Positions 3,265 through 53,200 of a stretch of DNA of 64,000 nt are shown here, piece after piece. Under the pieces are notes generated by a model that was given only the letters and a program-made list of their open reading frames with translations, was not told the origin of the DNA and searched no databases. This DNA is from a virus. How positions within the stretch are numbered: position 1 is the stretch's first letter; every line of letters starts with the position of its first letter. The DNA lies in IMG/VR virus record IMGVR_UViG_3300034520_000378. The stretch is one strand, 5' to 3'. A program made the translations under genes and the position numbers.

Positions 3265-3303
3265 AAAAAGCCCCCGGGAGAAACTCCTCCCGGGGGCTTT
3301 TTT
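3265..3303. terminator. rho-independent terminator, potentially bidirectional
   Basis: AAAAAGCCCCCGGGAG-aaactc-CTCCCGGGGGCTTTTTT. Confidence 0.8.
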
Positions 3304-3305
3304 GT

Positions 3306-3325
3306 GCGCGCCCGGCATGGGCGAT
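3306..3325 (+). mobile_element. group IIC intron 5'-end remnant
   Basis: GCGCGCCCGGCATGGGCGAT directly after terminator T-tract, the canonical IIC target context. Confidence 0.55.
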
Positions 3326-3349
3326 GAGGAAGGACTGAACGTCAGGAGA

Positions 3350-3564
3350 CTACGGTACGTACGGTATACAGCAGTTCGTTAGGATTGATGTACTACTTGA
3401 TATCTCGCACATCATTTCTTCCATCTCCTGACGCCGTTGATACACTATGCGCTTCCACTGTTTCTTGTGATTTCATCTCTTCCTTCAGCGGTTCAACTAG
3501 TGGTTCCAACTAGCAAGCCTACAGCGGACTTTCACCGCCTAGTTATCACTCATGCCGGACGCAC
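3350..3564 (-). mobile_element. internally deleted group IIC intron remnant (no RT ORF)
   Basis: minus strand begins GTGCGTCCGGCATGAGTGATAACTAGGCGGTGAAAGTCCGCTG right after the flagellin terminator; degenerate domain-V-like GAACTGCTGTATACCGTACGTAC near 3355-3377. Confidence 0.7.
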
Positions 3565-3572
3565 ACGAAATA

Positions 3573-3595
3573 GGCCAGAGGGTTTTCCTCTGGCC
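3573..3595 (-). terminator. flagellin terminator hairpin
   Basis: GGCCAGAGG/CCTCTGGCC stem 15 nt after flagellin stop. Confidence 0.75.
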
Positions 3596-3610
3596 CTTTC
3601 TCTTTTATGC

Positions 3611-4849
3611 TTACCTGAGTAACTGCAGTACCGCCTGAGGTAGCTGATTGGCCTGGGCAAGCATGGCCGTTGCAGCTTGCTGCAGGATACTCTGCTTGGT
3701 GAATTCCATCATTTCCTTTGCCATGTCTACGTCGCGGATGCGGGACTCGGCTGCGGTCAGGTTTTCGGCTGCTACGGATAGGTTGTTGATGGTATGTTCG
3801 AGGCGGTTCTGGTATGCACCAAGTTTGGAACGTTCTGCAGATACCGTATCAATTGCAGCTTGAATTTTAGTAACCGCATTAGCGGCGTTGGTGGCATTGC
3901 TTACATCTAAAGCGTACTCTACAGCTGTATTATTTGTTCCGTTAGTTACAGTCATGCTTGAAGTAAACCCACTACTACCCGTGTTGCTACTAATGCCCAA
4001 GGCAGACGCCCGCATGTCAGATAGATCCAGAGTCATAGTCTGGTTTTCATTAGCACCGATTTGCATTATAAAAGAAGAAGATTTAGCAGGAGTCGGGTTA
4101 TAAATACCTGGTGTTAAACCTATTGCTGATAGACTACCTGAGGTAGGAGTTTTAATTTCAATGCTGTCGGTAGTATTGCTTGCGGTAATCACTAACGCAT
4201 TGCCGCTCTTAGTAACAGTTGCGGCACCCGATAAGGCTGTATTTAGATCGGTGACCAAGGTATCAATGGTATTAGTTGACCCATCATAATTCTTGTTCAA
4301 GGCAACGGTCTTTGTTGTACCGCCTATAACAACATCAAAAACCAAGTTTGTAGTAGAAAAATCTGTACTTGTGCCCAAAGTGATGGTAGTACCAGTTACA
4401 GTAGCCGCTGTTCCCGCTGTTACCGTACCTGCCGTAGCATTAAGAAGTTTCTGGGTGTTAAATTCTGTAGTATTGGCTATGCGGTTGATTTCAGATGTAA
4501 GTTGGTTAATTTCCTTCTGGATTTCTGCACGGTCTTTATCGGTATTGGTATCATTACCAGCCTGGATAGCCAATTCCCTCATACGTTGGAGAATGCTGTG
4601 GACTTCGTTCAGCGCACCTTCGGCAGTCTGTATCATAGAAATAGCATCTTGGGCATTTCGTACCGATTGATTTAAACCTCTAATCTGAGCGCGCATCTTC
4701 TCGCTTATCGCCAGACCTGCCGCATCATCGCCGGCACGATTAATCCTGAGGCCCGATGAGAGTTTCTCCAGCGACTTCTGAAGTGAAGAGTTGTTGATGG
4801 AAAGCTGCCTGTACGCATTAAGCGCACTTATGTTTTGGTTAATCCTCAT
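3611..4849 (-). CDS. fliC: flagellin
   Basis: N-terminal MRINQNISALNA..LEKLSSGLRINRAGDDAAGLAISEKMRAQ and C-terminal RIRDVDMAKEM..QANQLPQAVLQLLR; Thr/Ser-rich variable core. Confidence 0.98.
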   Translation of the reverse strand: MRINQNISALNAYRQLSINNSSLQKSLEKLSSGLRINRAGDDAAGLAISEKMRAQIRGLNQSVRNAQDAISMIQTAEGALNEVHSILQRMRELAIQAGNDTNTDKDRAEIQKEINQLTSEINRIANTTEFNTQKLLNATAGTVTAGTAATVTGTTITLGTSTDFSTTNLVFDVVIGGTTKTVALNKNYDGSTNTIDTLVTDLNTALSGAATVTKSGNALVITASNTTDSIEIKTPTSGSLSAIGLTPGIYNPTPAKSSSFIMQIGANENQTMTLDLSDMRASALGISSNTGSSGFTSSMTVTNGTNNTAVEYALDVSNATNAANAVTKIQAAIDTVSAERSKLGAYQNRLEHTINNLSVAAENLTAAESRIRDVDMAKEMMEFTKQSILQQAATAMLAQANQLPQAVLQLLR

Positions 4850-4875
4850 GAATCATACCTCCTTGTATTATTGTT

Positions 4876-4895
4876 CTCCCCGGTCCTTCGGGGAG
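4876..4895 (-). promoter_or_regulatory. CsrA-binding hairpin in flagellin 5' UTR
   Basis: CUCCCCG-AAGGAC-CGGGGAG hairpin with ANGGA loop; second ANGGA overlaps the SD (ACAAGGAGG). Confidence 0.7.
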
Positions 4896-4944
4896 TAGTT
4901 TTGTTTGACAATCAGACCGGTCTGAATTGTCTTTTCACCATAAT

Positions 4945-4971
4945 ATATCGGCATACAGAGAGATAACTTTA
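4945..4971 (-). promoter_or_regulatory. sigma28 (SigD/FliA) promoter of flagellin
   Basis: TAAA-N15-GCCGATAT consensus match. Confidence 0.9.
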
Positions 4972-5073
4972 GGGCCACTCGATCAAATTGACCACCGTTT
5001 TTGACGCTGACAGCCGAATATCCCCACAAATGTGCTGCTTTTCGTCGACTTTCAGCTTTTTTCGCGCAAATAC

Positions 5074-5235
5074 TTACTCCTCTTCGTATTCGTCCAGTTC
5101 AAGCCGGAGGACCTTTACATTGGGCGGTGCTTCAATACCGATCTTGACCTTGCTGCCGTCGATTTCGACTATTCGCACGATAACGTCTTTACCAATGCGG
5201 ACGCCTTCGTCCACCCTCCTCGTGACCACAAGCAT
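5074..5235 (-). CDS. csrA: carbon storage regulator CsrA, short 53-aa form
   Basis: manual translation MLVVTRRVDEGVRIGKDVIVRIVEIDGSKVKIGIEAPPNVKVLRLELDEYEEE; GGGAGGGG RBS; below ORF-track cutoff. Confidence 0.92.
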   Translation of the reverse strand: MLVVTRRVDEGVRIGKDVIVRIVEIDGSKVKIGIEAPPNVKVLRLELDEYEEE

Positions 5236-5267
5236 GTGTATACCCCTCCCTGGTTAGATTGCTATAT

Positions 5268-5296
5268 TACTTCTACATTCGTCGACAAATTCCTCC
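5268..5296 (-). promoter_or_regulatory. sigmaH-like promoter of csrA
   Basis: GGAGGAATT-N11-GTAGAAGTA. Confidence 0.55.
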
Positions 5297-5547
5297 CTGA
5301 TACGTAAACAAAGTCACGCCACATGCATAATCTTCAAGCGACGTGCTTCTTCAAACAAGCGCTGTTCAATAGCGCGCCTGTATTCCTCAGGCATGGGCGG
5401 CAGGTCTTTCCTCCTACTCGATTTTTGGCCCACCTCAGCAAGCACTAAGCTCAACAGCGCCGCTCTTTAGCCATTCCAAAACTCTGTGCGCCGCCTCATC
5501 AGTTAAGCCATAGTGGCCTGATATGCTTATCATCCTGCCTATGTAAG

Positions 5548-5576
5548 TAATTCGACGTCCACGCTAATTTTCCTCC
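5548..5576 (-). promoter_or_regulatory. sigmaH-like promoter upstream of two tiny ORFs and csrA
   Basis: GGAGGAAAA-N11-GTCGAATTA. Confidence 0.65.
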
Positions 5577-5590
5577 TTCAACTAGGAGCT

Positions 5591-8500
5591 TTAAGCGATA
5601 TCTAATGGTGGCAATCCTTCTATAATCTTCATTGTTTCAACACTTACTCGTACAAGCCGCTTGATAAGATCGATTATATAGCGCGGGTTGTCTTGCTCCT
5701 CAAGCCATTTATTTGGGTCGTTGATAATGCCGCTTTTTCTATCCCTAGAAACCTGGTAGCGTTCCATAACCCACTCGATTGCCGGTTTTCCGTTGACTAC
5801 ATATTCGTAGGCTTCAAGCGGAATCCCGCTAAGGGTAATGTTTTCATTGTAGATGATTGTTGTCTTGTCATCCTGGCGATCTCGTGTTTTTCTGAAGCGC
5901 ATCTTAGAAACCTTGTATGTAACCAAGTCATTAGGATCGCCCTTGATTTCTTCCTTCAGCGGCCACGGCTCAACTGTTTCGTAGTTAAGATGGAGTTCTG
6001 CAAGTCTGCGTCCAGCATTACTGAATGCCCAGAAGTCCCCTGCCGAAGATACGAACGGAATCCGGGGAAGCACCTTCTTTAGATCATTTCTGTAGCGTTC
6101 ACGGTACTCGGAGGAGTGCAGGAGACCGTAGATGTAGTAGAAGATATCCTCTTTTGTTACATCTCCGCCGTAGCGCTTACGGTATTCCTCCAGCGCCCAA
6201 TCAGTGATGTTCTCATTGCGGATGTAGCGATTCCCGGAAGGTGTAGTTATAACTTCGCTATCTGGATGGTTGTCAAAAATGCTAATGTTTTGGTTGGTGG
6301 ATTCAGTGACTCTTTCGTATATATAGAGTGGGAATACTTGAATATCACCAATAAGATGTAAATCAGGAATGTGGTTGACAATTAATGTAGAAAACTCTTT
6401 TGAACTTCCTGGTGCTCTTACAGTAATCGCGATGTTTTCGATGCCAGGTTCTGGGAAAATCTTATGTTGCGAAGACGTTCGATCATTAAATATACGACTA
6501 AAGTAAATGTTTATTTTAACAAATGGCCGATATACAGCGTTTCTAATTTCACCAGCCTCTTGAAAAGTATACTTCTTTCGTCTAAAAATTGCTGATTTTA
6601 AACTGCTTGACCAAGCAATTCTTCTATGATCATTGTTAATCATTGATTCTAAATTTTCACGTGTAATTAATCCGGAAATAACAAGATCAACATGCCGGTT
6701 AAATTCTTCGATTGTTCGCATCATGTTTTCTTTAAGAACTTCTTGCGAAAAATTATATGCCCACGTATCTCTGCTTGTACTTACTCCAGTGGAATACTCT
6801 ATGAAAATAACGTTTTTTGCTCTTGGAGATGAATCCTTACTTCTAATCTCTGGGAATGTCTCAAAGTCTTCACTCCGCTGATTGATCCAGTCATGTACCG
6901 AATTTGGCACAATGCGTTTCCATGCCACTCCGCGGATGTCCCCGTATGCCTGCAGGCGCGCCAGTTTTTCCTCCCGGCTCAGGTAGTCACCGATGTCGTG
7001 GTAATAAATCTCCGCTTGACCCGTTTTGGACTTATCTTTAACAAGAATGAGCAATGCCACACCCGCACGGCTGCCTTGACCAAAAATTTTACCGCCTTCT
7101 CTACGCCAGGCTTCACCAGAAAGACGTGCGTTCCCGCGAAGATTAAGGACATAAATCTTCGCAAACTCATCAGCCAGGCACTTGCGGAGACCGTTGGCAG
7201 CAGCGCCGTCGAGAAAACCGCTGTTGGTTACAAAAGCGATAATACCCTTATCTTCAATGCGGTCGGTAGCCATTCGAATAGCGCGGATGTAAGAATCATA
7301 TAGAGCAATCTTAAGACGAGCTGCCGAATGTGCAGCATAGGTTTGACGTATTTTTCTATCCAATCTAGGATATTTAACTGCTTTATTCCCGAGGTTTTCA
7401 TCCTCTTGCCATGCAAACCATGGCGGATTTGAGATAATCACGTTTATCCGCGCTTTTTTCTGCTTCTCCATTAGTTCTGTATACTGCTCTGGGAAAATCG
7501 ATATTTGCACAGCACTTCTAGACTCCATAAGCTGGAAAGAGTCAACTAAAAGTAAATTGCGGAACGGCACGTGCTCTCCCGTCAATTCATAATACGTGCT
7601 TTCAATATTGGCAAGGGCAATATAATAAGGCAAAAGCAGAATCTCGTTTCCCCAGATTTCACCAGCACAGTATTTCCTAACAAGAGCTTCAGGCGCGATC
7701 TGGTACAGCTGATACATAAGCCGCACAAGGAAAGTCCCTGTTCCAGCAAATGGTTCAAGTATAACTACATTTTCGTCTGAAAGACTTGTGCCAAATTCAG
7801 CCTGTAAAACTGCTTCGGTACTTTTCACAAGGAAGTCTACAACCTCTACAGGAGTATAAACAATTCCTAAACGGTCGGCTGTCTTCGGGAAAGCGATTTT
7901 GAAGAAAGTGTCGTAGAGCTGACGCAGAAAGTCCTGCCGCTCGGCTTCTTTATCCAGTCCTCTAGCCCGCACCTTTATAAGCCGGTAAAATTCCTTCAAG
8001 GCTTGAGTCTCTCTATCGACGAATACTTCAAAAATACTGGCTAAGCTATCAAAACTGCGGGCAATGGGATTTTCTTTTAGGAATTCGTATTCATCAAAGA
8101 TCGCGTCAAAGATTGGTTTTGTGACTATGTGCTGCACCAGCATACCGCGAGCTTCTTCTTCGGTAATGGAAGGATTGATAATGCTGCGGAGCGCAGCCAA
8201 AAAGCCGGCAAACGCCTCACGGGTCTTTCTGCCGTATTCGCCGTCATGCTGCAATGCATCTGCGATATGTCGTTCAAGGCGAGCTGTTGCTGAAGCAACG
8301 TCCTTGGCCCACGTCTCTAGATAAGCACGTTCACCCACACGCTCAACCATCCTGCCGAGAATAGCATCGTAAAGCTCATCCTCAAAGTCAAAAGATAACT
8401 GCTCACCCCCGCTGGCTATAACAATGACATCATCGTCTGTGTATATCGTCTGGTCTCTTCCTCCTTTATTATGCGTCCGCCGGATATGCAGTTCTCTAAC

Positions 8501-10357
8501 CATGGCATCAAAGCGGTCATCAATGGAACGCAGAGCACCCAAAACCTCCCATACAGTGCGGAATTCCTCGTTTTTATCGAGCTGTTCTGCCGCATCGCGC
8601 TTAGGGTCTACTATAATGGGAAGTATAACATAACCGTAACGTTTCCCGGGAGCTTTCCGCATAACACGACCAACAGCCTGTACGACGTCAACCACACTTC
8701 TGCGAGGCTTGAGGAAAACTACAGCATCAAGAGCAGGCACATCAATTCCCTCTGTAAGCACTTTTGCATTAGAAAGCACACGCGTCTCGCCAGGTCCAGG
8801 CTCGTCCCTTAGCCAGTCCAGATACGCCTTACGCTGCGTCGCACTCATGGAACCGTCAATATGGCGCACTTCAAACCTGCGAAATTCGCCTTCACTACCA
8901 GTGGCCTCATAGTAGGCCTCAGTAGTCTTTACGAAGTATTCGGAGAACTTTTTTGAGTCAGCAATGCGCCCTGCAAAAACCACCGCTCTTTTCAGTGGAG
9001 GAATGGATTCATTCTTAATGCGCCCGCTTAGAGCGTTCCATACACCGACTATCTTAGCTGCCCATTCGAGTTGCGGCGCATCTTCGTAGTTAAGGAAATC
9101 AAAAAGCCTCCGCTGTACCGCGGCTTCATTGATTGTAAAGACTACGACCTTGTAATCACTAAGTACATTGTCATCTACAGCCTGCCCAAAGCCGTAACGG
9201 AAAAACTCCTCCCCGTATGTCCTTTCATCATCCATTGTGAAGTATTTATAACCTAGTTCTTCCAATCTCTCCCTAATCCGAGGCACAAATACCCGTGGAG
9301 TAGCCGTCATATAAAGCCTTTTTGCTCCCCGTATTATTTCATTATCATGCACTTTGTGGTAGTATGATGCTTCCTCGTCCTGCATTACACCGGTGGTGCG
9401 GTGAGCCTCATCAGCAATGATAAGGTTAAATTCAGGCAGCCCCAGTTTCTGCGCCTCCGCAACCACGTCAATGGAGTGATACGTGGAAACAATTACTGTC
9501 ATCTTGCCCTGGCTGGGTTTCCCGGCATCAGCAGCAAGTATAGCAGGATCGGTCGTCGGAGGAATTGAAAGCACCGTCGTTTGGTCGATAGAATCTTCAT
9601 CGCGGCCTACCGTATAATCGGAGGTAACAGCGTAAACACGTAACGGCAATTCTGTATCCATAAGCCATGCTCTAAGCGTTTGTTCTACTAAGGCAATGGA
9701 TGGAGCAAGAAACAGCACATACCCACCTGACCCAACAAGTCTTTCTGCTATCTTTAAGGCTACGAAAGTCTTGCCAGAACCGGGAGGCATAATAAGCTTG
9801 CCGCGGTCACTACGGCTGAACCCTTTTATTACCGCTTCAACGGCGTTCTGTTGATAAGGACGTAACTCTTTCTTCGGCAAGAGAGGAAGCTCTTCGGGGT
9901 TATTCCAGTCAAATTTGTCCCAGTCAATAGAACTCTCTAGCATAGTTGATAAAGATACAATAACTACAGGCTTTTCCTGATGCTCTAATGCCTGCTCTGC
10001 AGTACTGCTTAGAGGAGCTGTGGTAACAATCATACGATAACTGAACTCTCTACGTCCCGAAAGAGCAAGAAACGTAGATATGTCTTGAAAGCTAATTTGC
10101 TTGCTATGAAACTTCGCTTGAATGGCCCATAAAGCGCCGCTCTCACGTTCTTCTGCTACAAGGTCAATGCCGGAATCAATCTCACTACCACGTCCAGGCC
10201 ATTCAGACCAGCGCCATACATTTGAGAACAACTGGCCGTAGTAGCTGTCACGACGAAGATACGCCGCAACAAAACGCTCAAAAAGCTCGCCTTGTTCACG
10301 TTTAGTCTTTGCAACTGTCCGTAGACGGGAAAGAATCTTCTCGATACTACCACTCAT
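5591..10357 (-). CDS. Type ISP restriction-modification enzyme (LlaGI/LlaBIII family: Mrr-like nuclease, SF2 helicase, adenine methyltransferase, TRD)
   Basis: 1588 aa; GIDLVA..AIQAK nuclease, GSGKT and DEAH helicase motifs, EPFAGTGTF and NPPW methyltransferase motifs, C-terminal YVVNGKPAIEWVMERY. Confidence 0.92.
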   Translation of the reverse strand: MSGSIEKILSRLRTVAKTKREQGELFERFVAAYLRRDSYYGQLFSNVWRWSEWPGRGSEIDSGIDLVAEERESGALWAIQAKFHSKQISFQDISTFLALSGRREFSYRMIVTTAPLSSTAEQALEHQEKPVVIVSLSTMLESSIDWDKFDWNNPEELPLLPKKELRPYQQNAVEAVIKGFSRSDRGKLIMPPGSGKTFVALKIAERLVGSGGYVLFLAPSIALVEQTLRAWLMDTELPLRVYAVTSDYTVGRDEDSIDQTTVLSIPPTTDPAILAADAGKPSQGKMTVIVSTYHSIDVVAEAQKLGLPEFNLIIADEAHRTTGVMQDEEASYYHKVHDNEIIRGAKRLYMTATPRVFVPRIRERLEELGYKYFTMDDERTYGEEFFRYGFGQAVDDNVLSDYKVVVFTINEAAVQRRLFDFLNYEDAPQLEWAAKIVGVWNALSGRIKNESIPPLKRAVVFAGRIADSKKFSEYFVKTTEAYYEATGSEGEFRRFEVRHIDGSMSATQRKAYLDWLRDEPGPGETRVLSNAKVLTEGIDVPALDAVVFLKPRRSVVDVVQAVGRVMRKAPGKRYGYVILPIIVDPKRDAAEQLDKNEEFRTVWEVLGALRSIDDRFDAMVRELHIRRTHNKGGRDQTIYTDDDVIVIASGGEQLSFDFEDELYDAILGRMVERVGERAYLETWAKDVASATARLERHIADALQHDGEYGRKTREAFAGFLAALRSIINPSITEEEARGMLVQHIVTKPIFDAIFDEYEFLKENPIARSFDSLASIFEVFVDRETQALKEFYRLIKVRARGLDKEAERQDFLRQLYDTFFKIAFPKTADRLGIVYTPVEVVDFLVKSTEAVLQAEFGTSLSDENVVILEPFAGTGTFLVRLMYQLYQIAPEALVRKYCAGEIWGNEILLLPYYIALANIESTYYELTGEHVPFRNLLLVDSFQLMESRSAVQISIFPEQYTELMEKQKKARINVIISNPPWFAWQEDENLGNKAVKYPRLDRKIRQTYAAHSAARLKIALYDSYIRAIRMATDRIEDKGIIAFVTNSGFLDGAAANGLRKCLADEFAKIYVLNLRGNARLSGEAWRREGGKIFGQGSRAGVALLILVKDKSKTGQAEIYYHDIGDYLSREEKLARLQAYGDIRGVAWKRIVPNSVHDWINQRSEDFETFPEIRSKDSSPRAKNVIFIEYSTGVSTSRDTWAYNFSQEVLKENMMRTIEEFNRHVDLVISGLITRENLESMINNDHRRIAWSSSLKSAIFRRKKYTFQEAGEIRNAVYRPFVKINIYFSRIFNDRTSSQHKIFPEPGIENIAITVRAPGSSKEFSTLIVNHIPDLHLIGDIQVFPLYIYERVTESTNQNISIFDNHPDSEVITTPSGNRYIRNENITDWALEEYRKRYGGDVTKEDIFYYIYGLLHSSEYRERYRNDLKKVLPRIPFVSSAGDFWAFSNAGRRLAELHLNYETVEPWPLKEEIKGDPNDLVTYKVSKMRFRKTRDRQDDKTTIIYNENITLSGIPLEAYEYVVNGKPAIEWVMERYQVSRDRKSGIINDPNKWLEEQDNPRYIIDLIKRLVRVSVETMKIIEGLPPLDIA

Positions 10358-10375
10358 AAAAATACCTCCTGCTTC

Positions 10376-10777
10376 TTAAAACATCAGGGTGCTTTTATAA
10401 ACTCTATCTTGCCTATAGTCATCGTCCCATTGAACTTCTATTTCAAATGGCGGACTACAATCATGTGAGATTCCCAAAGGGAAACTCACTTGCGAAGTAG
10501 GTCCAATATACGAAGGGATGGTCATCCCCTTCAAAAACGCACAATGATCTTCGATTGGCACCCCGTTTAGTTTAATTCGAATATTACGCGCTTCCGCTTT
10601 ACCGGAATTAACTAAGAGCAGTCGATCGCTTTTGCCCACTTTTATCAGTATCGCATATAAATTTGCTTGAAGCAATTCAATTCTCCTATCGCGTTCTCGC
10701 TTCCAGAATGCAATAATGGAAACAACTAAGGTACAAAATGAAATCAGCAAACTGCCCCACGAAACAAAGTCACTCAT
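10376..10777 (-). CDS. hypothetical protein with N-terminal TM anchor
   Basis: 133-aa ORF, GGAGG RBS, hydrophobic residues 6-25. Confidence 0.7.
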   Translation of the reverse strand: MSDFVSWGSLLISFCTLVVSIIAFWKRERDRRIELLQANLYAILIKVGKSDRLLLVNSGKAEARNIRIKLNGVPIEDHCAFLKGMTIPSYIGPTSQVSFPLGISHDCSPPFEIEVQWDDDYRQDRVYKSTLMF

Positions 10778-10818
10778 TAGTTTGCCTCCTCTACAATCTT
10801 CTAGGCTTTTTCAGGTCA

Positions 10819-11745
10819 TTACGGCTTACACACCTTACATGGCTCATATCCCGCCTTTATTGCTTCCTCACGTGACTTAAAGTATACTCTATTCCCTGGC
10901 GCTATCTTTTTGGCCCACTGACAGTCCGGGAAATGAAACTTCTTGCTGTTTTTATTCCCTATATAAGAGGCCGATGCTTTGTTGGAAGACTCAGACTCTT
11001 CTTTTATCTCCAACCCCCAGAGCCCCGCATTTTTCTCCCTAGCTTCTTGCTGATATGTCCTGAAATACTCAGCATACTTCACATTCGGCGGCACCGTCAT
11101 GACCTGTGCATAACCTTCCAGCAGAAGCATCGCATTAAACATCTTTGTCCTTACTTCTTCGTCGCTTTCCTTTATTGGCGGCGAAAGCCATATGTACGCT
11201 AAAAGCCTGCCATACTTGTCTCTCTCCTGCACGTCAAGTTCGAGCCACACATCCTTGTTAAGGAGTTTTGATTTCGTATAAGCAGCTGCTTCCTTGCCGT
11301 AGGGCTCTACCTGTGTGGTACTTTCCGGTGTGTCTACACCGATGAACCGTACCTTTTCTTCTTTGCCATTCTCTAGCTTGATGTATACAGTGTCACCATC
11401 TACTACTTTCATTACTCTAGCCTTGATAAGATTAACTCCTGTATTCTTAGTATTTCCTGCTGTTGAAGAAGGCACGGTTTTACTTTCTTCCTTTGAGTTT
11501 GCTCCATCCTTTGCTGTAGGCTGCTGGATAGGCGCCGAAAATGAAACCGCATCATTCTGATGGTTGGATTCGGAGATTACTGCAGTACTACTCCGCTGAA
11601 CGGATTCCTCCAGCTCCGCCGCTTTGTCATTTGCGGAAGCAGAGGGCGGCACTGTTCCGCTACTGCTACATCCTGCAAGCGCCAGGATTATTATTAGAAC
11701 CAACAGAACGGTTATATTACCAGTATTCGCCTTATTCACCCTCAA
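10819..11745 (-). CDS. thermonuclease (SNase) lipoprotein with C-terminal Ada-like metal-binding domain
   Basis: lipobox LAGC; VVDGDT, VRFIGVDTPE, DKYGRLLAY motifs; FHFPDC..GYEPCKVCKP; start reassigned to TTG 11745 after GGAGG. Confidence 0.88.
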   Translation of the reverse strand: MRVNKANTGNITVLLVLIIILALAGCSSSGTVPPSASANDKAAELEESVQRSSTAVISESNHQNDAVSFSAPIQQPTAKDGANSKEESKTVPSSTAGNTKNTGVNLIKARVMKVVDGDTVYIKLENGKEEKVRFIGVDTPESTTQVEPYGKEAAAYTKSKLLNKDVWLELDVQERDKYGRLLAYIWLSPPIKESDEEVRTKMFNAMLLLEGYAQVMTVPPNVKYAEYFRTYQQEAREKNAGLWGLEIKEESESSNKASASYIGNKNSKKFHFPDCQWAKKIAPGNRVYFKSREEAIKAGYEPCKVCKP

Positions 11746-12008
11746 GGCCTTCCTCCCCCCTCCTTCTAGAGCACTAAAGAACTTCTCACCGTACACTACG
11801 CAACTTGCCTCTTCGTGTTCAGAAATCTTTCCCACACTCTTCATACACTTCATCGCCCCATATGCCCCGCCATTTATCTAAATACTCCTTTATCCAACCT
11901 TGCAAACCAACTGATCTCGTCATCCCAGCGGTATGGTCAAAAATACTTATTCCTCATAATCCATTCTCCTTTCTACGGGCCTTAAGTATCATTAAACAGT
12001 CGCCTCTT

Positions 12009-13571
12009 TTAACCTGCGCCCGGGGTTCTGCTTTTATCGAAAGAAAACCGTCTCGGGCCCGGTAGTTGAGGCGTTACCTCTTTTACTTCTATCGCAGGTT
12101 GTGCGCCTCTACCGCTAAAAATCCTCTCGATAAAGCTAGAAACTTTAACTACCGCGTTAACTGCAGCGTTTAAAATAGCCTTGCCAAGTGTATTCTCCTT
12201 CATATCTAACCCAAGCTTATAGGCTTCTGCCTTAAGCTTTTCGGCACATTCGTTCGCCCTTTTCATAGCTGCTATCAGCGGCGGATAATTGAATGGGTTT
12301 TTACTCAACCACATGCAATACTCCATTCCAGGCTTGTAAAACCCGTTTTCCCATCCTTCCCTTCTGTAATACTTCTCCATTACCTGTTTGGCCCGTTCAA
12401 TCTCGCTCAGTAAGTTCTTACGCATCTCCTCTGCACGCCTGCGTATTTCCTCGTATAAAAGTCTCCGCCTGGTCGGCCATAACCAGTTCCAGAAACTGAT
12501 CTTCAACTTCCGCCTTGCCCGTTCTGCCTTTCTGTCAATCGCTTTTATCCTCTCATTAATGGCATCCGGCACAACGCTTACTACCTTGAACACTGCTTCA
12601 TTGAACTCTCTTTTTGCCTCTTCAAATGCTGCCATACGCATACGTCTTGCCAACCCTCTCCCCGCCTTGGCACCAAAGAAAGCTCCTAAAACAGCTCCTA
12701 CAGCCGCACCAAATGGACCAAGAACTGCCCCTCCCAAGGCTACACCAATCTTACTTCCTATATATCCGCCTCCTCCAACGGCTATTGTGTCACGCATCAC
12801 ATTGACAGCTGCCTCGCCTACGCTAATGCGCCCGTTTAACAACAGATTGCCTTCCCGGATAGCTGCTAAAGCAAGGGTTACCAGAGGGATGTGAATACCG
12901 CCATCACCGAGTCTGTCTACCCCATGAATAGTATCCTTTACATGCCTTGCTACTTCATCATGGTGCAGATCGTGATCCACTATGACATTATCATTGCCAT
13001 CAAAATAGTGTGCCATTTCCGCATTTACAATTACAGGTATGTCATGAAACTTGTCCAAATGTTCCCGAATAAGATCAGGATCCATAACACATTTTACCTG
13101 GACCGGATGTCCGTCAACCAATATATCCCATCCTTCTTGATTGGGAATATCAGCAAACTCTACTATATGCCCCTGAGCAGCAAGATGGGCCGCTACAATC
13201 CTTTCCGCCGTATATCCCTCTAATCGTTCCATGGCGCCAGCAATAGACGCCTCTGCCCCTGATAGAAAATGGTCATGCACGTATCTGCTTATTTCGTTAA
13301 AAGTATCCAAATCAAGCTTGCTGGAAAAGTCCATTGCCTCCAGCACACTATCATCTATCATAGCCAGAGCGTGAAACATGTCATAGGCCGTAACCACTCC
13401 GGCAGCAACAGCATCAACATCGCCAACCTGCTTGATAAGAGAGTTAAAGCTCTTGCTTACCTCATCCCCCACTTTAATCTCTGTTCTCAACTCCCTATCA
13501 AGCACCCGCCAGCGCCATCGCCTTATTACTGCAAACACTACAATAGACCCTGCAAGTAGCAAAAGAACCAC
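12009..13571 (-). CDS. membrane protein with glycine zipper, coiled coil and possible PD-(D/E)xK-like motif
   Basis: 520 aa; N-terminal TM, E..GWDILVDGHPVQVK, GxxxG-rich segment. Confidence 0.7.
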   Translation of the reverse strand: MVLLLLAGSIVVFAVIRRWRWRVLDRELRTEIKVGDEVSKSFNSLIKQVGDVDAVAAGVVTAYDMFHALAMIDDSVLEAMDFSSKLDLDTFNEISRYVHDHFLSGAEASIAGAMERLEGYTAERIVAAHLAAQGHIVEFADIPNQEGWDILVDGHPVQVKCVMDPDLIREHLDKFHDIPVIVNAEMAHYFDGNDNVIVDHDLHHDEVARHVKDTIHGVDRLGDGGIHIPLVTLALAAIREGNLLLNGRISVGEAAVNVMRDTIAVGGGGYIGSKIGVALGGAVLGPFGAAVGAVLGAFFGAKAGRGLARRMRMAAFEEAKREFNEAVFKVVSVVPDAINERIKAIDRKAERARRKLKISFWNWLWPTRRRLLYEEIRRRAEEMRKNLLSEIERAKQVMEKYYRREGWENGFYKPGMEYCMWLSKNPFNYPPLIAAMKRANECAEKLKAEAYKLGLDMKENTLGKAILNAAVNAVVKVSSFIERIFSGRGAQPAIEVKEVTPQLPGPRRFSFDKSRTPGAG

Positions 13572-13610: not shown

Positions 13611-13640
13611 TTATTCTACACTGATAGTCATTTTCCTCCT
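13611..13640 (-). promoter_or_regulatory. sigmaH-like promoter heading the leftward cargo block
   Basis: GGAGGAAAA-N11-GTAGAATAA. Confidence 0.65.
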
Positions 13641-21599: not shown

Positions 21600-21625
21600 G
21601 TGTCTGAAAGGAGGTGCCTAGTGTC

Positions 21626-24346
21626 ATGGTGAAGTACGAGGTTCGCGGTAATGTTGCTGTTGTCACGTTCAACTATGACCCGGACTATGTTACTAGGATA
21701 AAGCAGGTGCCGGGTGCTAGATGGAATCCCGAGGAGAAGGCCTGGCAGATACCGGCACAGCACATAGAGACGTTCCGGCGGCTGTTCGATGGCGAGATAA
21801 TTGAAGACCGGCTGCCGGATTTTCATGCAGACATTGTCAAACAGGAAGTCGGCACAGCCGTGCCACTCTATGAGTTCCAGAAGTTCGGGGCGTCGTTCCT
21901 AGCTCAGAGGGCGGCACAGAACGGCTTTGCGTTCTTGTGTGACGCAACAGGCATTGGGAAGGGTCATCCTGTAGACACTAATATTCTTACCCCCGCTGGA
22001 TGGCGTCGGATAGGAGATCTGCGAGTAGGTGACAAAGTCATAGGATCAAATGGGCAGGCGGTAACGGTAACAGGTGTATTTAGGCGTGGTATATTGCCAG
22101 TGTATCGTGTTACCTTTAACGACGGTTGCTCTATTCTTGTCGATGCTGACCATGTCTGGGCTGTTCGCACGGGTAGTGATCAGCACCGTGGGCGCAACTT
22201 CTACCTGAAGACAACTCGTGAACTTATGAACGACCTTACTTATAGCAATGGTTACTGTAAGTGGCGTATTCCACTGGTAGCACCGGTTCAGTTCCAAGAT
22301 AGCGGTGAGAGGCCTATAGATCCATATGTCCTTGGTGTTCTATTGGCAGACGGATGTTTTAGTGGGCATACTGTACGATTTACACCTGGTGACAAACATG
22401 TTGCAGAAGAGGTGGCCTCATTACTACCTCCAGGACTTAGCTTGACAAAAGAGCGAGGTAGTCGATCTAGCTCTACCACATATTGTATATCTTCTGGTAA
22501 ACCTGGAGCATCCAACCCCGTACTTGATGCACTAAGGCAACTAGGGCTTATGGGGTTGCGCTCTCACGAACGCTTCGTGCCTCGGTCTTATCTTTTTGCA
22601 CCTGTTGAGGATCGGATAGCATTGCTCCAAGGTTTATTAGATTCAGACGGCGAATTTTATGTGGGCACTAACCATGTTGGGTTCTGTACTACCTCTCTCC
22701 ACCTGGCGGAGGCTGTTACATTTTTGGTCCAAAGTTTCGGCGGTGTAGTGTGGCAAACGATAAAACGATCCCCAAAGTATAGACATAACGGAGAGCTTCG
22801 TGTTGGGAAACAAGCTTACTTGCTCTCTATTCGCCTGCCCGACTCTATTACACCCTTCCGTATAAGGAAACTGCCACCTCTTAAGAGGCCCAGAAAGTAC
22901 TTGCCTAACCGAATCATACGCTCCATTGAACCGGCTGGTCAAGCTGAAGTGATATGTATTGCTGTCGATGCTCCTGATCAGCTCTACGTTACCGAACACT
23001 TCATAGTTACTCATAATACACCGCAGTCCCTCGGTGCCTGGCTGCTCCTTAAGGACATGCTCGGCACCGAGTCCCTACCTACTCTTGTTGTCACGCCTGC
23101 CGCCGTGCGGCACCAGTGGGTGGTTGACGCCATCCCCAAGTTCCTGGGGAGCGACACCGACGTGGTTGAGGTGGTCGGTACGCAGCAGCAGCGGCTTGCG
23201 CTTTACGGCACGGCGGAGATAACCGTGGTTAACTACGAGGCGCTCATGCGCGATGCCGAGCTCATCCCCAAGGATACTAAGTTTGCCTTGTTCGTCTTCG
23301 ATGAGTGCCAGAGACTCAAGAATAAGAGCGGCGTTACATATAGGGCTGTCAAGAAGTTGCTTAAGCGGATGCCGGGTGCGTTTAAGTTCTTCCTGACGGC
23401 CACACCGCTCATGAACAACCTGGACGAGCTTTATGCCCTGTTCGAATTGGCTCAGCCTGGCTTCTTCGGCAAGTACAGTCAGTTCAAACAGGAGCATATG
23501 AAGTTCGTCTGGACTGGCAAGTACCCCAAGCTTGTCGGCTATAAGAAGCTTGGTATGATTGCCCAGAAGATTGCCCCACATATCCTCCGCCGTACAGCAG
23601 AGCATCCGGAAGTTGCCACTGCGCTGCCGGAGTTTGTTGAGCAGGTGCTGTACGTGGAGCCGTCCCCCCTACAGCGGCAGCTGCATGACCTCATATACGA
23701 CGACTGGCTCAAAACGCAGCAGGAGCTTGCCAAGCTTGAAGGTCCGGCACGTGAGCAGGCCGAGGTGCGCTGCCGCGGCCAGATTGTGCTTATGCAGGGT
23801 GCGGCGGATGACCCGCGGCTCTTCACTATGAGCAGCTCAAGGCAGACGGAGTACTACCTGGAGCACGTGGGAAACATTCCTGATTCTCCTTCCCCGAAGC
23901 TCCAGGCATTGTGCGAGCTTGTTAACGACCTTGTACCCGATGGCAAGGTCGTCATATTCACCTGCTTTGAACGCATGGCGCGTCTTATCCACGGCGCACT
24001 GCAGCAATACAATCCGGCCTTGTTCACGGGTAAGAACAAGGACGAGCGCGAGGTCGAGCTTAAGCGCTTCTGGCAGGATCCGTCCTGTAAGGTTATTGTC
24101 ATGACTGACGCTGGAGGAGTGGGGTTGAACGTCCAAATCGCCAGGTTCCTCATTAACTTCGACCTCCCATGGAGCCCCGGCCAACTGGAACAGCGGTACG
24201 GCCGCATCAAACGCTTCGGCTCACAGTACCGCTCTGTTGTCGTTTTCAACATGCTTACGCTGGGCACCATCGACCAGCGCGTTATGCAGGCACTCCAGCG
24301 CAAGCAGGAGGTGTTTACAGCGCTCATCTATGCATACCCCGTGTGA
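21626..24346 (+). CDS. SNF2-family helicase with N-terminal HARP-like domain, intein-containing
   Basis: GIGK|T Walker A split by intein, DECQ, LTATP..N, GGVGLN, QRYGRIKR motifs. Confidence 0.9.
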   Translation: MVKYEVRGNVAVVTFNYDPDYVTRIKQVPGARWNPEEKAWQIPAQHIETFRRLFDGEIIEDRLPDFHADIVKQEVGTAVPLYEFQKFGASFLAQRAAQNGFAFLCDATGIGKGHPVDTNILTPAGWRRIGDLRVGDKVIGSNGQAVTVTGVFRRGILPVYRVTFNDGCSILVDADHVWAVRTGSDQHRGRNFYLKTTRELMNDLTYSNGYCKWRIPLVAPVQFQDSGERPIDPYVLGVLLADGCFSGHTVRFTPGDKHVAEEVASLLPPGLSLTKERGSRSSSTTYCISSGKPGASNPVLDALRQLGLMGLRSHERFVPRSYLFAPVEDRIALLQGLLDSDGEFYVGTNHVGFCTTSLHLAEAVTFLVQSFGGVVWQTIKRSPKYRHNGELRVGKQAYLLSIRLPDSITPFRIRKLPPLKRPRKYLPNRIIRSIEPAGQAEVICIAVDAPDQLYVTEHFIVTHNTPQSLGAWLLLKDMLGTESLPTLVVTPAAVRHQWVVDAIPKFLGSDTDVVEVVGTQQQRLALYGTAEITVVNYEALMRDAELIPKDTKFALFVFDECQRLKNKSGVTYRAVKKLLKRMPGAFKFFLTATPLMNNLDELYALFELAQPGFFGKYSQFKQEHMKFVWTGKYPKLVGYKKLGMIAQKIAPHILRRTAEHPEVATALPEFVEQVLYVEPSPLQRQLHDLIYDDWLKTQQELAKLEGPAREQAEVRCRGQIVLMQGAADDPRLFTMSSSRQTEYYLEHVGNIPDSPSPKLQALCELVNDLVPDGKVVIFTCFERMARLIHGALQQYNPALFTGKNKDEREVELKRFWQDPSCKVIVMTDAGGVGLNVQIARFLINFDLPWSPGQLEQRYGRIKRFGSQYRSVVVFNMLTLGTIDQRVMQALQRKQEVFTALIYAYPV
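21962..23017 (+). mobile_element. class 3 intein (352 aa) with LAGLIDADG endonuclease
   Basis: starts GHPVDT, block B DHVW, block F VICIAV, ends VTHN|T; LGVLLADG and LQGLLDSDG motifs; lower GC. Confidence 0.88.
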
Positions 24347-33371: not shown

Positions 33372-34953
33372 AAACAGTTAAAGATAACTATGCAGTGCAG
33401 TGCAATTTTAACCAGGTTGCACTAGATGTTATTGAAAGTGCAGAAAATATCTATTAAGCGAGTGAACGAAAGTATGATAACGATTAAAGCAAGGATATAT
33501 CCAGATGGAGAAAATAGAATACTGCTGGATGATTTAATGCAGAAATGGAATTCCTGCAAGAGATATGCTTACAATCGTTTACTTGAAGGAAAAACACGGA
33601 AAGAGCTTAAGAAAGAGCTACAGAGCTTGTTCGAACTTAATTCTAGATATGTTGACGATGCCATTCTTGAAGCCAGCGAAATTCTACAGAGTGCTAAAGA
33701 ACTTGGACAAAATCCCAGAAAGGTCATCTTCGGTGGAAGAGACTTGTTTAACAAGCTAAAAAGCAAGCATTTGAGCACCAAGCAACTTAAAAAGTACAGG
33801 CAGGAATGGGAAGATAAACGTAAAGGCTCTCTCTTTTCTAGAGGTGATAGCACAAAACAAGGCAATTTAAACTTAAGAGTTATTAAGCAGAATGGTCAAT
33901 ACTTTGTAAGAGTAAATACAGGCAATAGAAAATGGTTATTTATCCAACTCAAAAGTTCTCACAAGAAATGGGAAAAGTTTGAAGCTGTAATGCTAAACTC
34001 TCAACCTTACAGTGTTCGTATTCAGAGGAAAAACAATAAGTATTATGCTTACATTTCCTTTGAAGAAGACATACCGAACACAGTAATAGATTTTACCAAT
34101 GGAGCCATAGGGATAGATTTAAATGCATTTCCCTCTCATATAGCATGGGCTGAAACAAAAGCAAACGGTAATTTAGCAAGCTATGGAGAAATACCAACGC
34201 CGCATCTATGGGATGGAAGAAGAGAAAAGAGAGACTACTTTGGTTGGGTATATGCTCACGAGGTTATAAAACTGGCTCGTGAAAAGAATAAAGGCATTGT
34301 GATAGAAGATTTATCAATAAAAAACAAAGGCTATAGAGGGGATTACAAAGGTAGAAAGTCCAGAAGGATAAAGCATAATTTTAGTTACAGGAAGCTCATT
34401 ATGAGGATAAAAGCACTCGCCAAGAGGTATGGTATAGCAGTAAAAGAAGTAAATCCATGCTATACAAGCGTAATAGGGATGCTGAAATATGCACCTCAGT
34501 TTAATCTAACAAAAGATGTAGCAGCAGCTTATGTGATAGCCAGAAAGGGATTGGCTTTAAGGGAGAGAGTTCCTTTAAAGTATAGAGAGATTTTAGGAAG
34601 CCTGCAAAGCGAGCCATGGTCGGTATCCTTGTCAACCGCTGGAAGGAACGAGGGTACTGCGGCAAAGGCGAAGACCTTGCTGTACAAACCGTGGCGAGTT
34701 TTGCGGGTAGCCCTCCTGACGGGAGCTCTCCTTGACAGGGAACTGTATAGGGACCTGTCACCGCTAAAGAGAGTACTCTTTAGTGGTTTGGGAGATGGCG
34801 GGTGAGAAACCTGCGGCAAGTTCCATATCCTGGTGATGGGACTATGAGAGTGCCTAAAAACCGCCTGCTGGGAGTAGGTACTCTCTGAAAGGGCGGACTA
34901 CAAATAGCCCAGCTCTCAAACTCGTGCATTTTTGCACAGTTTGGGATACCAGG
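33369..34953 (+). mobile_element. non-autonomous IS607-type TnpB element
   Basis: AT-rich insert bounded by GG on both sides; removal restores GGAGGG|TGATGTGATG (upstream stop plus downstream RBS/start); structured 3' end. Confidence 0.7.
33426..34805 (+). CDS. tnpB: TnpB-family RNA-guided endonuclease (likely start 33474)
   Basis: RuvC motifs IGIDLN, IVIEDL, TKDVAAAYVIARKG; VNPCYTS. Confidence 0.88.
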   Translation: MLLKVQKISIKRVNESMITIKARIYPDGENRILLDDLMQKWNSCKRYAYNRLLEGKTRKELKKELQSLFELNSRYVDDAILEASEILQSAKELGQNPRKVIFGGRDLFNKLKSKHLSTKQLKKYRQEWEDKRKGSLFSRGDSTKQGNLNLRVIKQNGQYFVRVNTGNRKWLFIQLKSSHKKWEKFEAVMLNSQPYSVRIQRKNNKYYAYISFEEDIPNTVIDFTNGAIGIDLNAFPSHIAWAETKANGNLASYGEIPTPHLWDGRREKRDYFGWVYAHEVIKLAREKNKGIVIEDLSIKNKGYRGDYKGRKSRRIKHNFSYRKLIMRIKALAKRYGIAVKEVNPCYTSVIGMLKYAPQFNLTKDVAAAYVIARKGLALRERVPLKYREILGSLQSEPWSVSLSTAGRNEGTAAKAKTLLYKPWRVLRVALLTGALLDRELYRDLSPLKRVLFSGLGDGG

Positions 34954-50237: not shown

Positions 50238-53200
50238 GTGTTGCCGATACTCTATGTCCCGACCCACGTCCATACCGCATTCAGCGTCCTCGATGGCCTC
50301 GCCAAGACTGAAGATCTGGTTGCCAAGGCAAAAGAGTTCGGCATGCCAGCCATTGCGGTGACGGACCATCGCAACACCGCTGCGCATGTGAAGTTCTACA
50401 GGGTATGTCAGGAGGCGGAAATAAAACCCCTGCTCGGCGTTGAGCTGAATGAAGCTGACGACAGGCTGCTGCACTCCCGTAAAGCGCGTCAGGAAAGAGG
50501 CTACGATGACTACCACATCATCATGATTGCCAAGAACCAGGAAGGCTACAAAAACCTCATGGAGATAGTCTCGGACGCCTCTACTGCGGGCTACTTTGAC
50601 AAGACCGAGCAGACAGACATGACGGTCCTCCGCGAGCGCGGCAGGGGAATTATAGCCACTTCGGCGTGCCTGGCCGGCCGCATCCCGCGGTACATCCTCC
50701 AAAACAGGCTGGACGATGCCGAGCGATGGATATCCGACTTCAAGGAAGTCTTCGACCAGTTCTATCTGGAGATTCAGCCAAACTCCCTGCCGGAGCAGGC
50801 TGTAGTAAACGAAGCGCTCATTCAGCTTGCACGCAAGACGAACACGCCGCTCATTCTTGGCACTGACGTGCACTATGTGAACCGCGAGGACGCCTTTGCA
50901 CAGGACATTCTATTGTGTATCCAGACAGGCAAGAAGCTCAAAGACCAGGATCGTCTCAAGTTCAACGGAGATCCGGACTACTACATGTGGTCGCCGGAGG
51001 AGATAGACAAGTGGATTGCCGCCTCTTCCCTGCCTCATGATGCTCTGTATGAAGCTGTAGAGAACACTCTACGCGTTGCCGAAGAATGCGACGTCACACT
51101 GGATCTTGGCACGCACAAGATGCCAACGTTCAAGACACCGGACGGCTCAACGCCTGAAGACTATCTTACACGCATCTGCTACACCGAACTTGACCGCAGG
51201 TTTGCCGATCACCCCGATTACGGCACATACAAGGCACGGCTTGAGATGGAGCTGTCTGTCATAATTCCCAAAGGCTTTGCGAGCTACTTCCTCATACTGC
51301 AGGATATCCTGGACTACTGCAGACGTCAGGGTATACCGCGTGGCGGTGGGCGCGGCAGTGCGGCGGGATGCTTCGTAGCTTACCTGCTTGGGATAACAAC
51401 AATAGATCCGATACAGAACGGTCTATTGTTCGAGCGTTAGAGGATAGCGCTCGTTAAACTGGGTGAATTCGGGGAAACTCCCTTTAGGGACAACCCCGAG
51501 CCGAGCCTGGCCGGGCCCGGCGCAAGCCGGTGGTAGCCAGGAAGGTGTAGAGGCCAGCGGCTGAGTCCCAACGATAATGCCGCCACGAGCGCCCGGCACC
51601 GGAGTCCTCCGGTGATGATATGGTCCGACCTGCCTGGCAACAGGCAGAACCAGGAGATAAAAAGCTCCTGGGATAACATAAGTGTTCCTCAACCCCGAGC
51701 GCGTGAGCTTGCCCGACATTGATGTGGATATCAGTCACGAGCGTCGCGATGAGGTTATAGCCTACGTCCGCCAGACATACGGCCACGTTGCCCAAATAGC
51801 CACCTATTCCCTACTCCATCCCAAGAGTGCCGTCCGTGACATATGTCGCGTACTGGATCTTTCCTATTCTTATGCTGACATGCTCTCCAAGCTGGTGCCC
51901 GAGAAGATGCCAGACCAGTCCGAGGTAACGCTTGAGAAGTTCCTGCTCCCCGTAAACGACTTTGACAAGGCTGCCGAGAAGTGGGGACCGGCCGAGGCAA
52001 AAGCAATCAAGGCACAGGCCGAGCAGTTCCTCAAGGAAGCGCAGAAGCACCCGGAGATTATGAACATCCTCCACAAGATAGAAGGCTGTGTCCGCTCTGT
52101 AGGAATACACGCTGGTGGCGTCCTCATAGCTCCCACGGAGCTTACGGACTACTGCAGCCTTATTGCTTCTCCGGGCAAGGTCGTCTGTTCGCTCGATATG
52201 GAGGATGTCGATGTCTACGGCCTGCTGAAAGTCGACCTTCTCGGCTTAAAGACGGTGTCTATCATTTATCGAACAGCAGAAAGAGTTGGCGTTGACATAG
52301 ACAGTGTGCCGCTAGATGATCCTGCTGTCTACGAGCTCTACCAGAACGGTCAGACCCACGGTATATTCCAGCTGTCCGGTGATGGTATCACGAGGTATGC
52401 CAAGGAGGTGAAGCCGCGAGAGTTCTCGGACCTGGTTGACATATTGGCCCTTGCCTAGGTGGTAGGGGGCCGTTAAAGCGGGTAATATGCTGGGACGCCC
52501 TTAGAGTCCAACCGACGATACCGACCGGTGACGGATCGGCGACCCGTAAAACTGGTTGGAATTGGGCAATCAGCAGGCAAAGTACTGAGTCAGTCAGTAC
52601 TGGCCTCAGAGACTGCGGAGTATTCCGGCTCATGATTGGTGACAATCATGAGTATCCCCGCTAGGCCTCTAAGGAGGCCGAATGATACAGTCCGAACCCT
52701 AGGCGAAAGCTTAGGGAGTCAGGCAGAAATGACCTGACCTTCCAGGGCCATAGCTAGGCGTTGTCTAAGCCATTCTTCAGTTATTGGTTCATCGTACCGT
52801 ATAACTAACAGTTTTAATCCATGGGCACTAATTAGTTTCTGCTTAATATAGTCCCGATACTTTCTGACCTTGAACTTCTCTAGCTCGTCTTCACCGAAGC
52901 GTTCTGTTTGCGGTATATAGTGTTGCTCACCATTGTACTCTATGCATAGTTTATAGGCTGGAAAGTAAGCATCAACATAGAGCTTACGTCCCGTTTTAGG
53001 GTTAACTAGCCATGGAAATGACTTCTCCAGGATATAGGTGCTATTGAGAATCTTGGCTATTTTCTCTATAATGATTCGCGCTGTTACTGGATTGCCTGGT
53101 ATTCGATCTTCTAGTCCGGCAGCTCTGTAAGCATTATTAAGAGAGCCGAATCTGCGCATGAATGTCTCAACTGAGTAGCGTGATGCCTCCTTAATGACCT

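Follow-up and report, generated by a model that had tools for sequence, protein, structure and literature searches.

A mobile phage cassette encoding an intact flagellin and a short CsrA that ends before the FliW-docking asparagine

Results

A flagellin gene with late flagellar control signals on a phage contig

The DNA analysed here is a 64,000-nucleotide (nt) stretch of the IMG/VR virus record IMGVR_UViG_3300034520_000378, referred to throughout as the window; coordinates are those of the window unless another locus is named. It carries a 1.85 kb cassette on the minus strand (3565–5416), delimited by nucleotide identity to a second phage contig (L006, described below), which consists of a short scar of a foreign gene, a csrA gene, a leader, a flagellin gene and a terminator. 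The flagellin (3611–4849, minus strand) is predicted to be a protein of 412 amino acids with complete N- and C-terminal helical domains; it matches Pfam Flagellin_N (PF00669, 175 bits) and Flagellin_C (PF00700, 104 bits) over nearly their full length and looks competent for export and assembly. It is 88% identical to the chromosomal flagellin of the metagenome-assembled genome (MAG) GCA_030490265.1.

The gene is preceded by an exact consensus sigma-D (sigma-28) promoter, TAAA-N15-GCCGATAT (4945–4971, minus strand), the only match to this motif in the window even when one mismatch is allowed, against 0.18 expected by chance. The leader of about 90 nt is predicted to fold with a free energy of -26.7 kcal/mol (z = -3.1 versus shuffled sequences), and the fold is kept in five copies of the cassette. 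It comprises, on the minus strand, a 5'-proximal hairpin (4907–4931), in which the copy in contig L014 shows one compensatory change from A-U to G-C, and two predicted CsrA sites. The first is a 7-bp hairpin with a GGA in its loop (CUCCCCG-AAGGAC-CGGGGAG, 4876–4895), and the second is the Shine-Dalgarno sequence AAGGAGG, the GGA of which is predicted to lie in a small hairpin loop (4858–4864); the two GGA motifs are 24 nt apart. An intrinsic terminator (3572–3596, minus strand; a hairpin of ten pairs, seven of them G-C) follows the gene and is kept in L006. By sequence and predicted fold, the flagellin thus has the marks of a late flagellar gene, namely a sigma-D promoter and two GGA sites, one of them over the Shine-Dalgarno sequence.

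Chromosomal loci of look-alike genomes (L010, L011 and L012) stood in for the host in our comparisons. Copies of the cassette keep the sigma-D promoter, and the hag leader of L011, a Clostridiales MAG, has an equivalent of its own, TAAA-N15-GTCGATAA, together with a hairpin with a GGA loop and a GGA-containing Shine-Dalgarno sequence. The stems in the leaders of L011 and of L012, a Neomoorella thermoacetica chromosome, differ from those of the phage, with the GGA loop at the equivalent place. No known RNA family was detected by Rfam in the flagellin leader. A switch by an invertible, hin-linked promoter was considered and rejected, as the cassette contains no recombinase and the only bracketing inverted repeat (4527–4547 and 5133–5153, 81% complementary) is weak and lies within coding sequence.

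An earlier reading of the locus, made from its letters and without database searches (the sequence-only reading), had described an intact flagellin with a consensus sigma-28 promoter, a two-site CsrA-type leader and its own terminator, in the company of virion-type genes and no other flagellar genes. This description held throughout: neither a FliW-like frame nor a second flagellin was found in the window, and the same-strand genes downstream of the flagellin lead into a large terminase.

The phage CsrA is a conserved short form without Asn55

Immediately upstream of the flagellin, as had also been noted, lies a csrA gene (5074–5235, minus strand) encoding a protein of 53 amino acids that ends in LRLELDEYEEE. 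It scores 63.1 bits against PF02599 (cut-off 27) over profile positions 1–49 of 53; residues 1–47 align without gaps to solved CsrA/RsmE structures, and L2, R6, R7 and R44 are all present. The protein has neither Asn55 nor the C-terminal extension. A search beyond the stop codon for a remnant of the CsrA tail found none, which argues that the 53-amino-acid protein is an established short form and not the product of a fresh nonsense mutation. Comparison with the csrA of L006 gave a nonsynonymous divergence (dN) of 0.01 and a synonymous divergence (dS) of 0.455 (dN/dS 0.02), and comparison with that of L014 a dN/dS of 0.12; purifying selection on the short protein is thus strong.

Among 80 chromosomal relatives, 41 have fliW directly upstream of csrA. 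These fliW-linked proteins are 68–86 amino acids long and all but two of them (39/41) have Asn55, whereas the phage copies are of 53, 53, 56 and 59 amino acids and have Asp, Gln or no residue at position 55. In published work N55 contacts Q124 of FliW and is invariant where both proteins occur, and the N55D substitution abolishes both FliW binding and FliW antagonism (PMC6529632; bioRxiv 10.1101/2020.07.02.184341). The earlier statement that this CsrA stops short of the FliW-docking residue was therefore correct, and we infer, with good grounds in the sequence, that the phage protein is a FliW-blind but RNA-competent repressor.

The sequence-only reading had further placed csrA under a sigma-H-like promoter, and this stands in part. 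The motif just upstream of csrA, AGGAATT-N11-GTAGAA(G) (5271–5294, minus strand), is a partial match that lacks the final T of RNNGAAT; it is kept in L006–L009, and the corresponding position of L014 reads GTAGAAT. A pattern search placed another such motif, AGGAAAA-N11-GTCGAA(T), upstream of both the scar and csrA (5551–5574, minus strand). Its relaxed form is over-represented in the window (six occurrences, 0.69 expected), and three of these precede cargo genes on the minus strand. One occurrence of the AGGAAAA-N11-GT(C/A)GAA type precedes a cargo gene at 13614–13637 (minus strand).

The cassette is cargo of a jumbo phage and has moved between unrelated phages

The window encodes phage functions in replication, recombination and lysis, including a UvsX-like recombinase, an intein-bearing SNF2 helicase, further helicases, an endolysin and a DNA polymerase split by endonuclease genes. 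An identical flagellin is present on five contigs from different samples; the longest contig that bears it measures 213,643 bp. On these contigs the same-strand order is a type ISP restriction enzyme, csrA, flagellin, five genes without a Pfam match and the large terminase, with a prohead-protease-like gene beside the terminase, downstream of the flagellin. In the window the terminase lies 4 kb downstream of the cassette on the same strand, and G+C content falls to 42–49% at 3.5–13.5 kb against 51–60% in the flanks. Given this gene content, the terminase neighbourhood and the contrast in G+C, the cassette is cargo in a low-GC island of a jumbo phage and not flanking chromosome; the phage-borne location claimed earlier is confirmed and the alternative of ordinary chromosome is ruled out. 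A scan with a neighbouring 223-amino-acid gene returned no relatives of the jumbo phage.

The closest copy of the cassette is in L006, a 33-kb contig with genes for a holin, an amidase, a protein of 556 amino acids, CsrA, a flagellin of 420 amino acids and an integrase. The cassette adjoins the integrase, and L006 represents a temperate phage unrelated to the jumbo phage. Window positions 5416–4438 correspond to L006 9820–10799, and 3844–3565 to L006 11417–11693, at 84–93% nucleotide identity; the L006 CsrA is also of 53 amino acids and is 98% identical to that of the window. Beyond the cassette the two have only the amidase gene in common (73% identical). The upstream end of the cassette is a scar (5314–5416, minus strand) corresponding to the last 33 codons of the 556-amino-acid gene, which is intact in L006 (8253–9923). 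By tblastn the scar is 88% identical to residues 525–557 of the L006 protein; the homology stops at the junction, with none farther upstream. This cut-off fragment of a gene that neighbours the L006 cassette shows that the cassette was brought in from an L006-like phage.

Further copies are found in L002, an isolate prophage in IMG/VR with an amidase, a csrA (59 amino acids) and a flagellin, and in L014, with a CsrA of 56 amino acids; among deposited phages, a search at the DNA level gave no close cassette. With its own promoter and terminator, deviant composition and occurrence in unrelated phages, the unit has the properties of a phage moron.

Short csrA genes recur beside phage flagellins, without fliW or TldR

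Few deposited phages encode a flagellin (11 of 50,697 records). A pattern-based scan of IMG/VR with CsrA alignment recovered only L002; applying a small CsrA profile to flagellin-anchored loci was far more sensitive. A short CsrA was found directly upstream of flagellin in L001, L002, L003, L004, L005, L006, L014 and Bacillus phage EZ-2018a which, with the window, gives nine phage loci on unrelated backbones. All four of the other flagellin-bearing IMG/VR contigs (L001, L003, L004 and L005; 52–195 kb) have the short CsrA. In these and in EZ-2018a it ends 10–100 nt before the flagellin start, and a sigma-D promoter precedes csrA, giving a two-gene operon. Terminase, portal, capsid, DNA polymerase and endolysin genes adjoin the cassettes in L001, L003 and L005, the three checked for phage context. 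A FliW profile, which found the chromosomal control in L011, gave no match either in the window or at nine further phage loci. The search proposed earlier, for phage csrA-flagellin pairs lacking fliW, has thus yielded eight further loci, with fliW not found in the stretches examined.

The divergent cassettes, at L001 7764–9197, L003 7749–9965, L004 7681–8870, L005 7715–8852 and L096 3659–4906, form a family with the N-terminus (A/G)LV(L/V)GRK and with csrA and flagellin in one operon downstream of a sigma-D promoter. In L001 the genes for terminase, portal and capsid follow the unit directly.

The module had also been described as lacking TldR, the nuclease-dead TnpB of known flagellin-remodelling prophages, and this proved accurate. 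No TldR or TnpB adjoins the cassette, and there is no room for such an open reading frame (ORF) within 3565–5590. The only TnpB-like ORF in the window, of 459 amino acids and with weak Pfam matches, lies 28 kb away (33426–34805). A TldR-like role for it was rejected, since its flanks contain no guide-like match of at least 15 nt to any flagellin locus.

The unit derives from a chromosomal locus and its flagellin is a mosaic

The closest chromosomal loci (L010, L011 and L012) have the order flgM-flgN-flgK-flgL-DUF6470-fliW-csrA, with CsrA proteins of 73–77 amino acids; in L011 CsrA has 76 amino acids and csrA is followed directly by hag, the product of which is 88% identical to the phage flagellin. 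Because the csrA-then-flagellin order and the leader signals match those of the L011 locus, the phage unit is recognizable as the csrA-hag end of a chromosomal fliW-csrA-hag locus, without fliW. In L012 (3491–11629) csrA and hag are separated by about 6 kb of inserted DNA with Uma2, SNF2, ZorA-like and dynamin-like genes; its flagellin, annotated as a protein of 379 amino acids plus a separate Flagellin_C frame of 94, may be disrupted or misassembled.

Identity in 60-nt bins revealed a host-derived patch in the variable domain of the phage flagellin (4001–4480, minus strand). From 4480 to 4001 each bin is 92–100% identical to L011 hag (~97% overall) and 28–63% identical to L006, whereas the flanks (5380–4721 and 3820–3581) show the opposite preference and are nearest to L006, at 80–97%. 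At the protein level residues 141–260 are 95% identical to L011 and 10–17% identical to L006. Flagellins of Neomoorella and Desulfotomaculum share this type of central domain at ~80%, so it is native to chromosomes; the central domains of L006 and L002, the temperate relatives, reach no more than 10–22% identity with the host type. The C-terminal region of the flagellin is 89–90% identical to both host and phage relatives. A recent gene conversion from a host close to L011 is the simplest reading of the patch, which also marks an L011-like lineage as a likely host of the jumbo phage, probably a phage of heat-loving anaerobic Firmicutes.

Discussion

Relationship to known flagellin switches

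The cassette resembles the Hag-FliW-CsrA switch of Bacillus subtilis (Mukherjee 2011, 2016; Oshiro 2019, 2020; Altegoer 2016) in the order of csrA and flagellin, the sigma-D promoter, the CsrA core and the paired GGA motifs of the leader, the first in a hairpin loop and the second in the Shine-Dalgarno sequence. It differs in being phage-borne, in lacking fliW, in a CsrA that ends at residue 53, before Asn55 and the extension, and in the promoter-like motifs that csrA has of its own.

Phage flagellar remodelling published so far uses TldR (PMC10705468; PMC13418256). Like the tldR-fliCP prophages of Enterobacter described there, the cassette combines an extra, phage-encoded flagellin with a potential silencer of host flagellin. 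In those prophages the regulator is an RNA-guided, nuclease-dead TnpB that acts on transcription, whereas that of the cassette would be a small RNA-binding protein acting on translation; the cassette has neither TldR nor guide RNA, and its host belongs to a different phylum. The csrA-tldR-fliC loci of Clostridia such as Oscillibacter and Flavonifractor likewise link an extra csrA to an extra flagellin, and CsrA is enriched there on a flagellin 5' untranslated region with a GGA stem-loop (PMC13418256). They are, however, chromosomal, with no phage association found (PMC10705468), and contain tldR, in many cases together with hin and an invertible promoter; the cassette has no tldR and no recombinase.

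CsrA-family genes on mobile elements are themselves known, as rsm alleles of phages and plasmids (PMC7366521) and as csrT of a Legionella integrative and conjugative element, which that paper cites. These share with the cassette a mobile location but, as they are presented there, are not paired with a flagellin, have no adjoining flagellin-type operator and have no assigned function in phages; the cassette has both flagellin and operator. The same survey found csrA in 30 of 2,517 phage genomes, without an assigned function or a link to flagellin (PMC7366521). We found no published description of a phage csrA-flagellin unit in the literature searched.

A model for FliW-independent throttling of flagellin

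Our favoured interpretation, to which we give a probability of roughly 0.55, is that the cassette is a mobile phage moron derived from a Firmicute fliW-csrA-hag locus and that it throttles flagellin independently of FliW. In the descent from that locus, fliW and the part of CsrA on which FliW docks would have been lost, and the unit has moved between unrelated phages. Host sigma-D would transcribe the phage flagellin only after completion of the hook-basal body, and the two-GGA leader would place its translation under CsrA. Phage CsrA, possibly made from the sigma-H-like promoters at the end of growth, would keep its RNA-binding core while escaping FliW docking, and would therefore repress flagellin-type leaders of host and phage in a way that the assembly checkpoint cannot lift. 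The net effect would be a carrier in which, regardless of FliW, the production of flagellin is throttled or re-weighted and which also receives a phage-supplied flagellin, the conserved ends of which would permit recombination with the host gene. If so, the phage can probably interfere with the making of host flagella.

Several points weigh against this interpretation. The phage leader appears to be as CsrA-bindable as that of the host, a caveat already raised by the sequence-only reading and borne out by the two-GGA architecture common to both; no selectivity can be read from leaders of the same design, and phage CsrA would silence its own neighbour. Why a repressor should be paired with a flagellin bearing an equally good operator is left unexplained by the model. 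FliW blindness is argued from the absence of a region, and a second contact of FliW with the CsrA core (D41-K123) may allow weak binding. Heterodimers with host CsrA would retain one FliW site, and a single bound FliW is enough to inhibit a dimer (PMC6529632). The sigma-H assignment is a partial consensus match. Finally, the jumbo phage may be virulent, temperate or plasmid-like, and whether it stays in cells long enough for cargo driven by host sigma factors to matter may be questioned, even if the defence-like cargo of the island (restriction-modification and a nuclease) suggests long residence.

A bolder version is possible but doubtful: that the cassette is a purely post-transcriptional, TldR-free takeover device common to temperate and jumbo phages of Firmicutes, in which a FliW-blind CsrA overrides the checkpoint and the conserved flagellin ends serve as homology arms for swapping the variable domain, time and again, with each host infected. 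If true, no earlier antagonist of the partner switch would be known from a phage, and the cassette would carry flagellin surface domains from one bacterium to another.

Alternative explanations

It is unlikely, in our view, that the cassette serves mainly in filament replacement, with the phage flagellin replacing or diluting the host subunit, so as to exclude flagellotropic phages or alter motility, while the short CsrA silences host hag. The tldR-fliCP prophages offer a precedent (PMC13418256), the flagellin is intact, and the divergent central domains of L006 and L002 are what a surface swap would be expected to produce. The host-type patch argues the other way: with a surface domain ~97% identical at the nucleotide level, the phage flagellin would not look different from the filament of an L011-like host, and an antigenic or receptor swap in such a host is unlikely. 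Nor is selective silencing evident when phage and host leaders carry the same CsrA sites. The earlier suggestion that the element substitutes the host flagellin is thus weakened for the phage of the window and stays plausible for the temperate relatives.

We regard as improbable that the flagellin acts as a sponge, soaking up FliW and freeing host CsrA, or that phage CsrA targets other host or phage mRNAs and its link to flagellin is historical. The conserved C-terminal region of the flagellin would suit the former and the occurrence of CsrA homologues in phages without flagellin (PMC7366521) the latter, but csrA is found again and again in close company with a flagellin that has a CsrA-type leader, which speaks for flagellin as the target, and a secretion-competent flagellin under sigma-D would be a costly sponge.

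Least probable is that the cassette is passenger DNA, gained by recombination with its features inherited from host or donor and without a selected role in the jumbo phage: its import appears recent from the donor-gene scar and the low-GC island, and the host-identical patch shows that the flagellin gene recombines freely, but csrA has a dN/dS of 0.02 at a dS of 0.45, all signals are intact, the flagellin is identical across five contigs from different samples, and the pair is met on unrelated phage backbones, at nine loci in all.

Significance

To our knowledge, RNA-guided TldR repressors in Enterobacteriaceae are the one case in which phages have been shown to control the flagella of their hosts. 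The cassette suggests that phages of Firmicutes would reach the flagellum by another route, through hijack of the translational Hag-FliW-CsrA checkpoint, and it provides a concrete candidate role for phage csrA genes, the existence of which was noted long ago. New here are the transfer between a temperate and a jumbo phage with its scar, the selection on the short CsrA and the host-identical flagellin patch, in which the variable domain of flagellin is seen to pass between chromosome and phage. The short CsrA is also a natural separation-of-function variant for studies of FliW allostery, and Bacillus phage EZ-2018a, on B. pumilus 145, is a cultivable relative with the same arrangement.

Other features of the window

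The cargo island adjoining the cassette (5591–13571) is low in G+C and contains four genes. These encode a type ISP restriction-modification enzyme of 1588 amino acids with Mrr nuclease, helicase, methylase and specificity domains, an ORF of 133 amino acids, a secreted-type SNase/Ada-Zn nuclease (10819–11853) and a glycine-zipper membrane protein of 520 amino acids.

On the other side, just past the flagellin terminator, is a non-coding element of ~265 nt (3303–3570) with terminal inverted repeats of ~22 nt (GTGTGCGYCCGGCATG...), which looks like a miniature inverted-repeat transposable element. Its left 78 nt are 87% identical to L011 11686–11763, downstream of hag. The 80-nt stretch in common with L011 was considered as the 5' end of a group II intron and rejected, being the end of this element and having no Rfam support; Rfam likewise gave no known RNA family in the element. 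Between the cassette and the next late gene there is a strong bidirectional terminator (3265–3305; AAAAAGCCCCCGGGAG...CTCCCGGGGGCTTTTTT).

Elsewhere in the window, the SNF2-family helicase gene (21614–24346) is split by an intein with Hint and LAGLIDADG domains, and the DNA polymerase gene (50238–56623) is in at least three pieces, with HNH/homing-endonuclease genes between them at 52719–53861 and 54215–55021.

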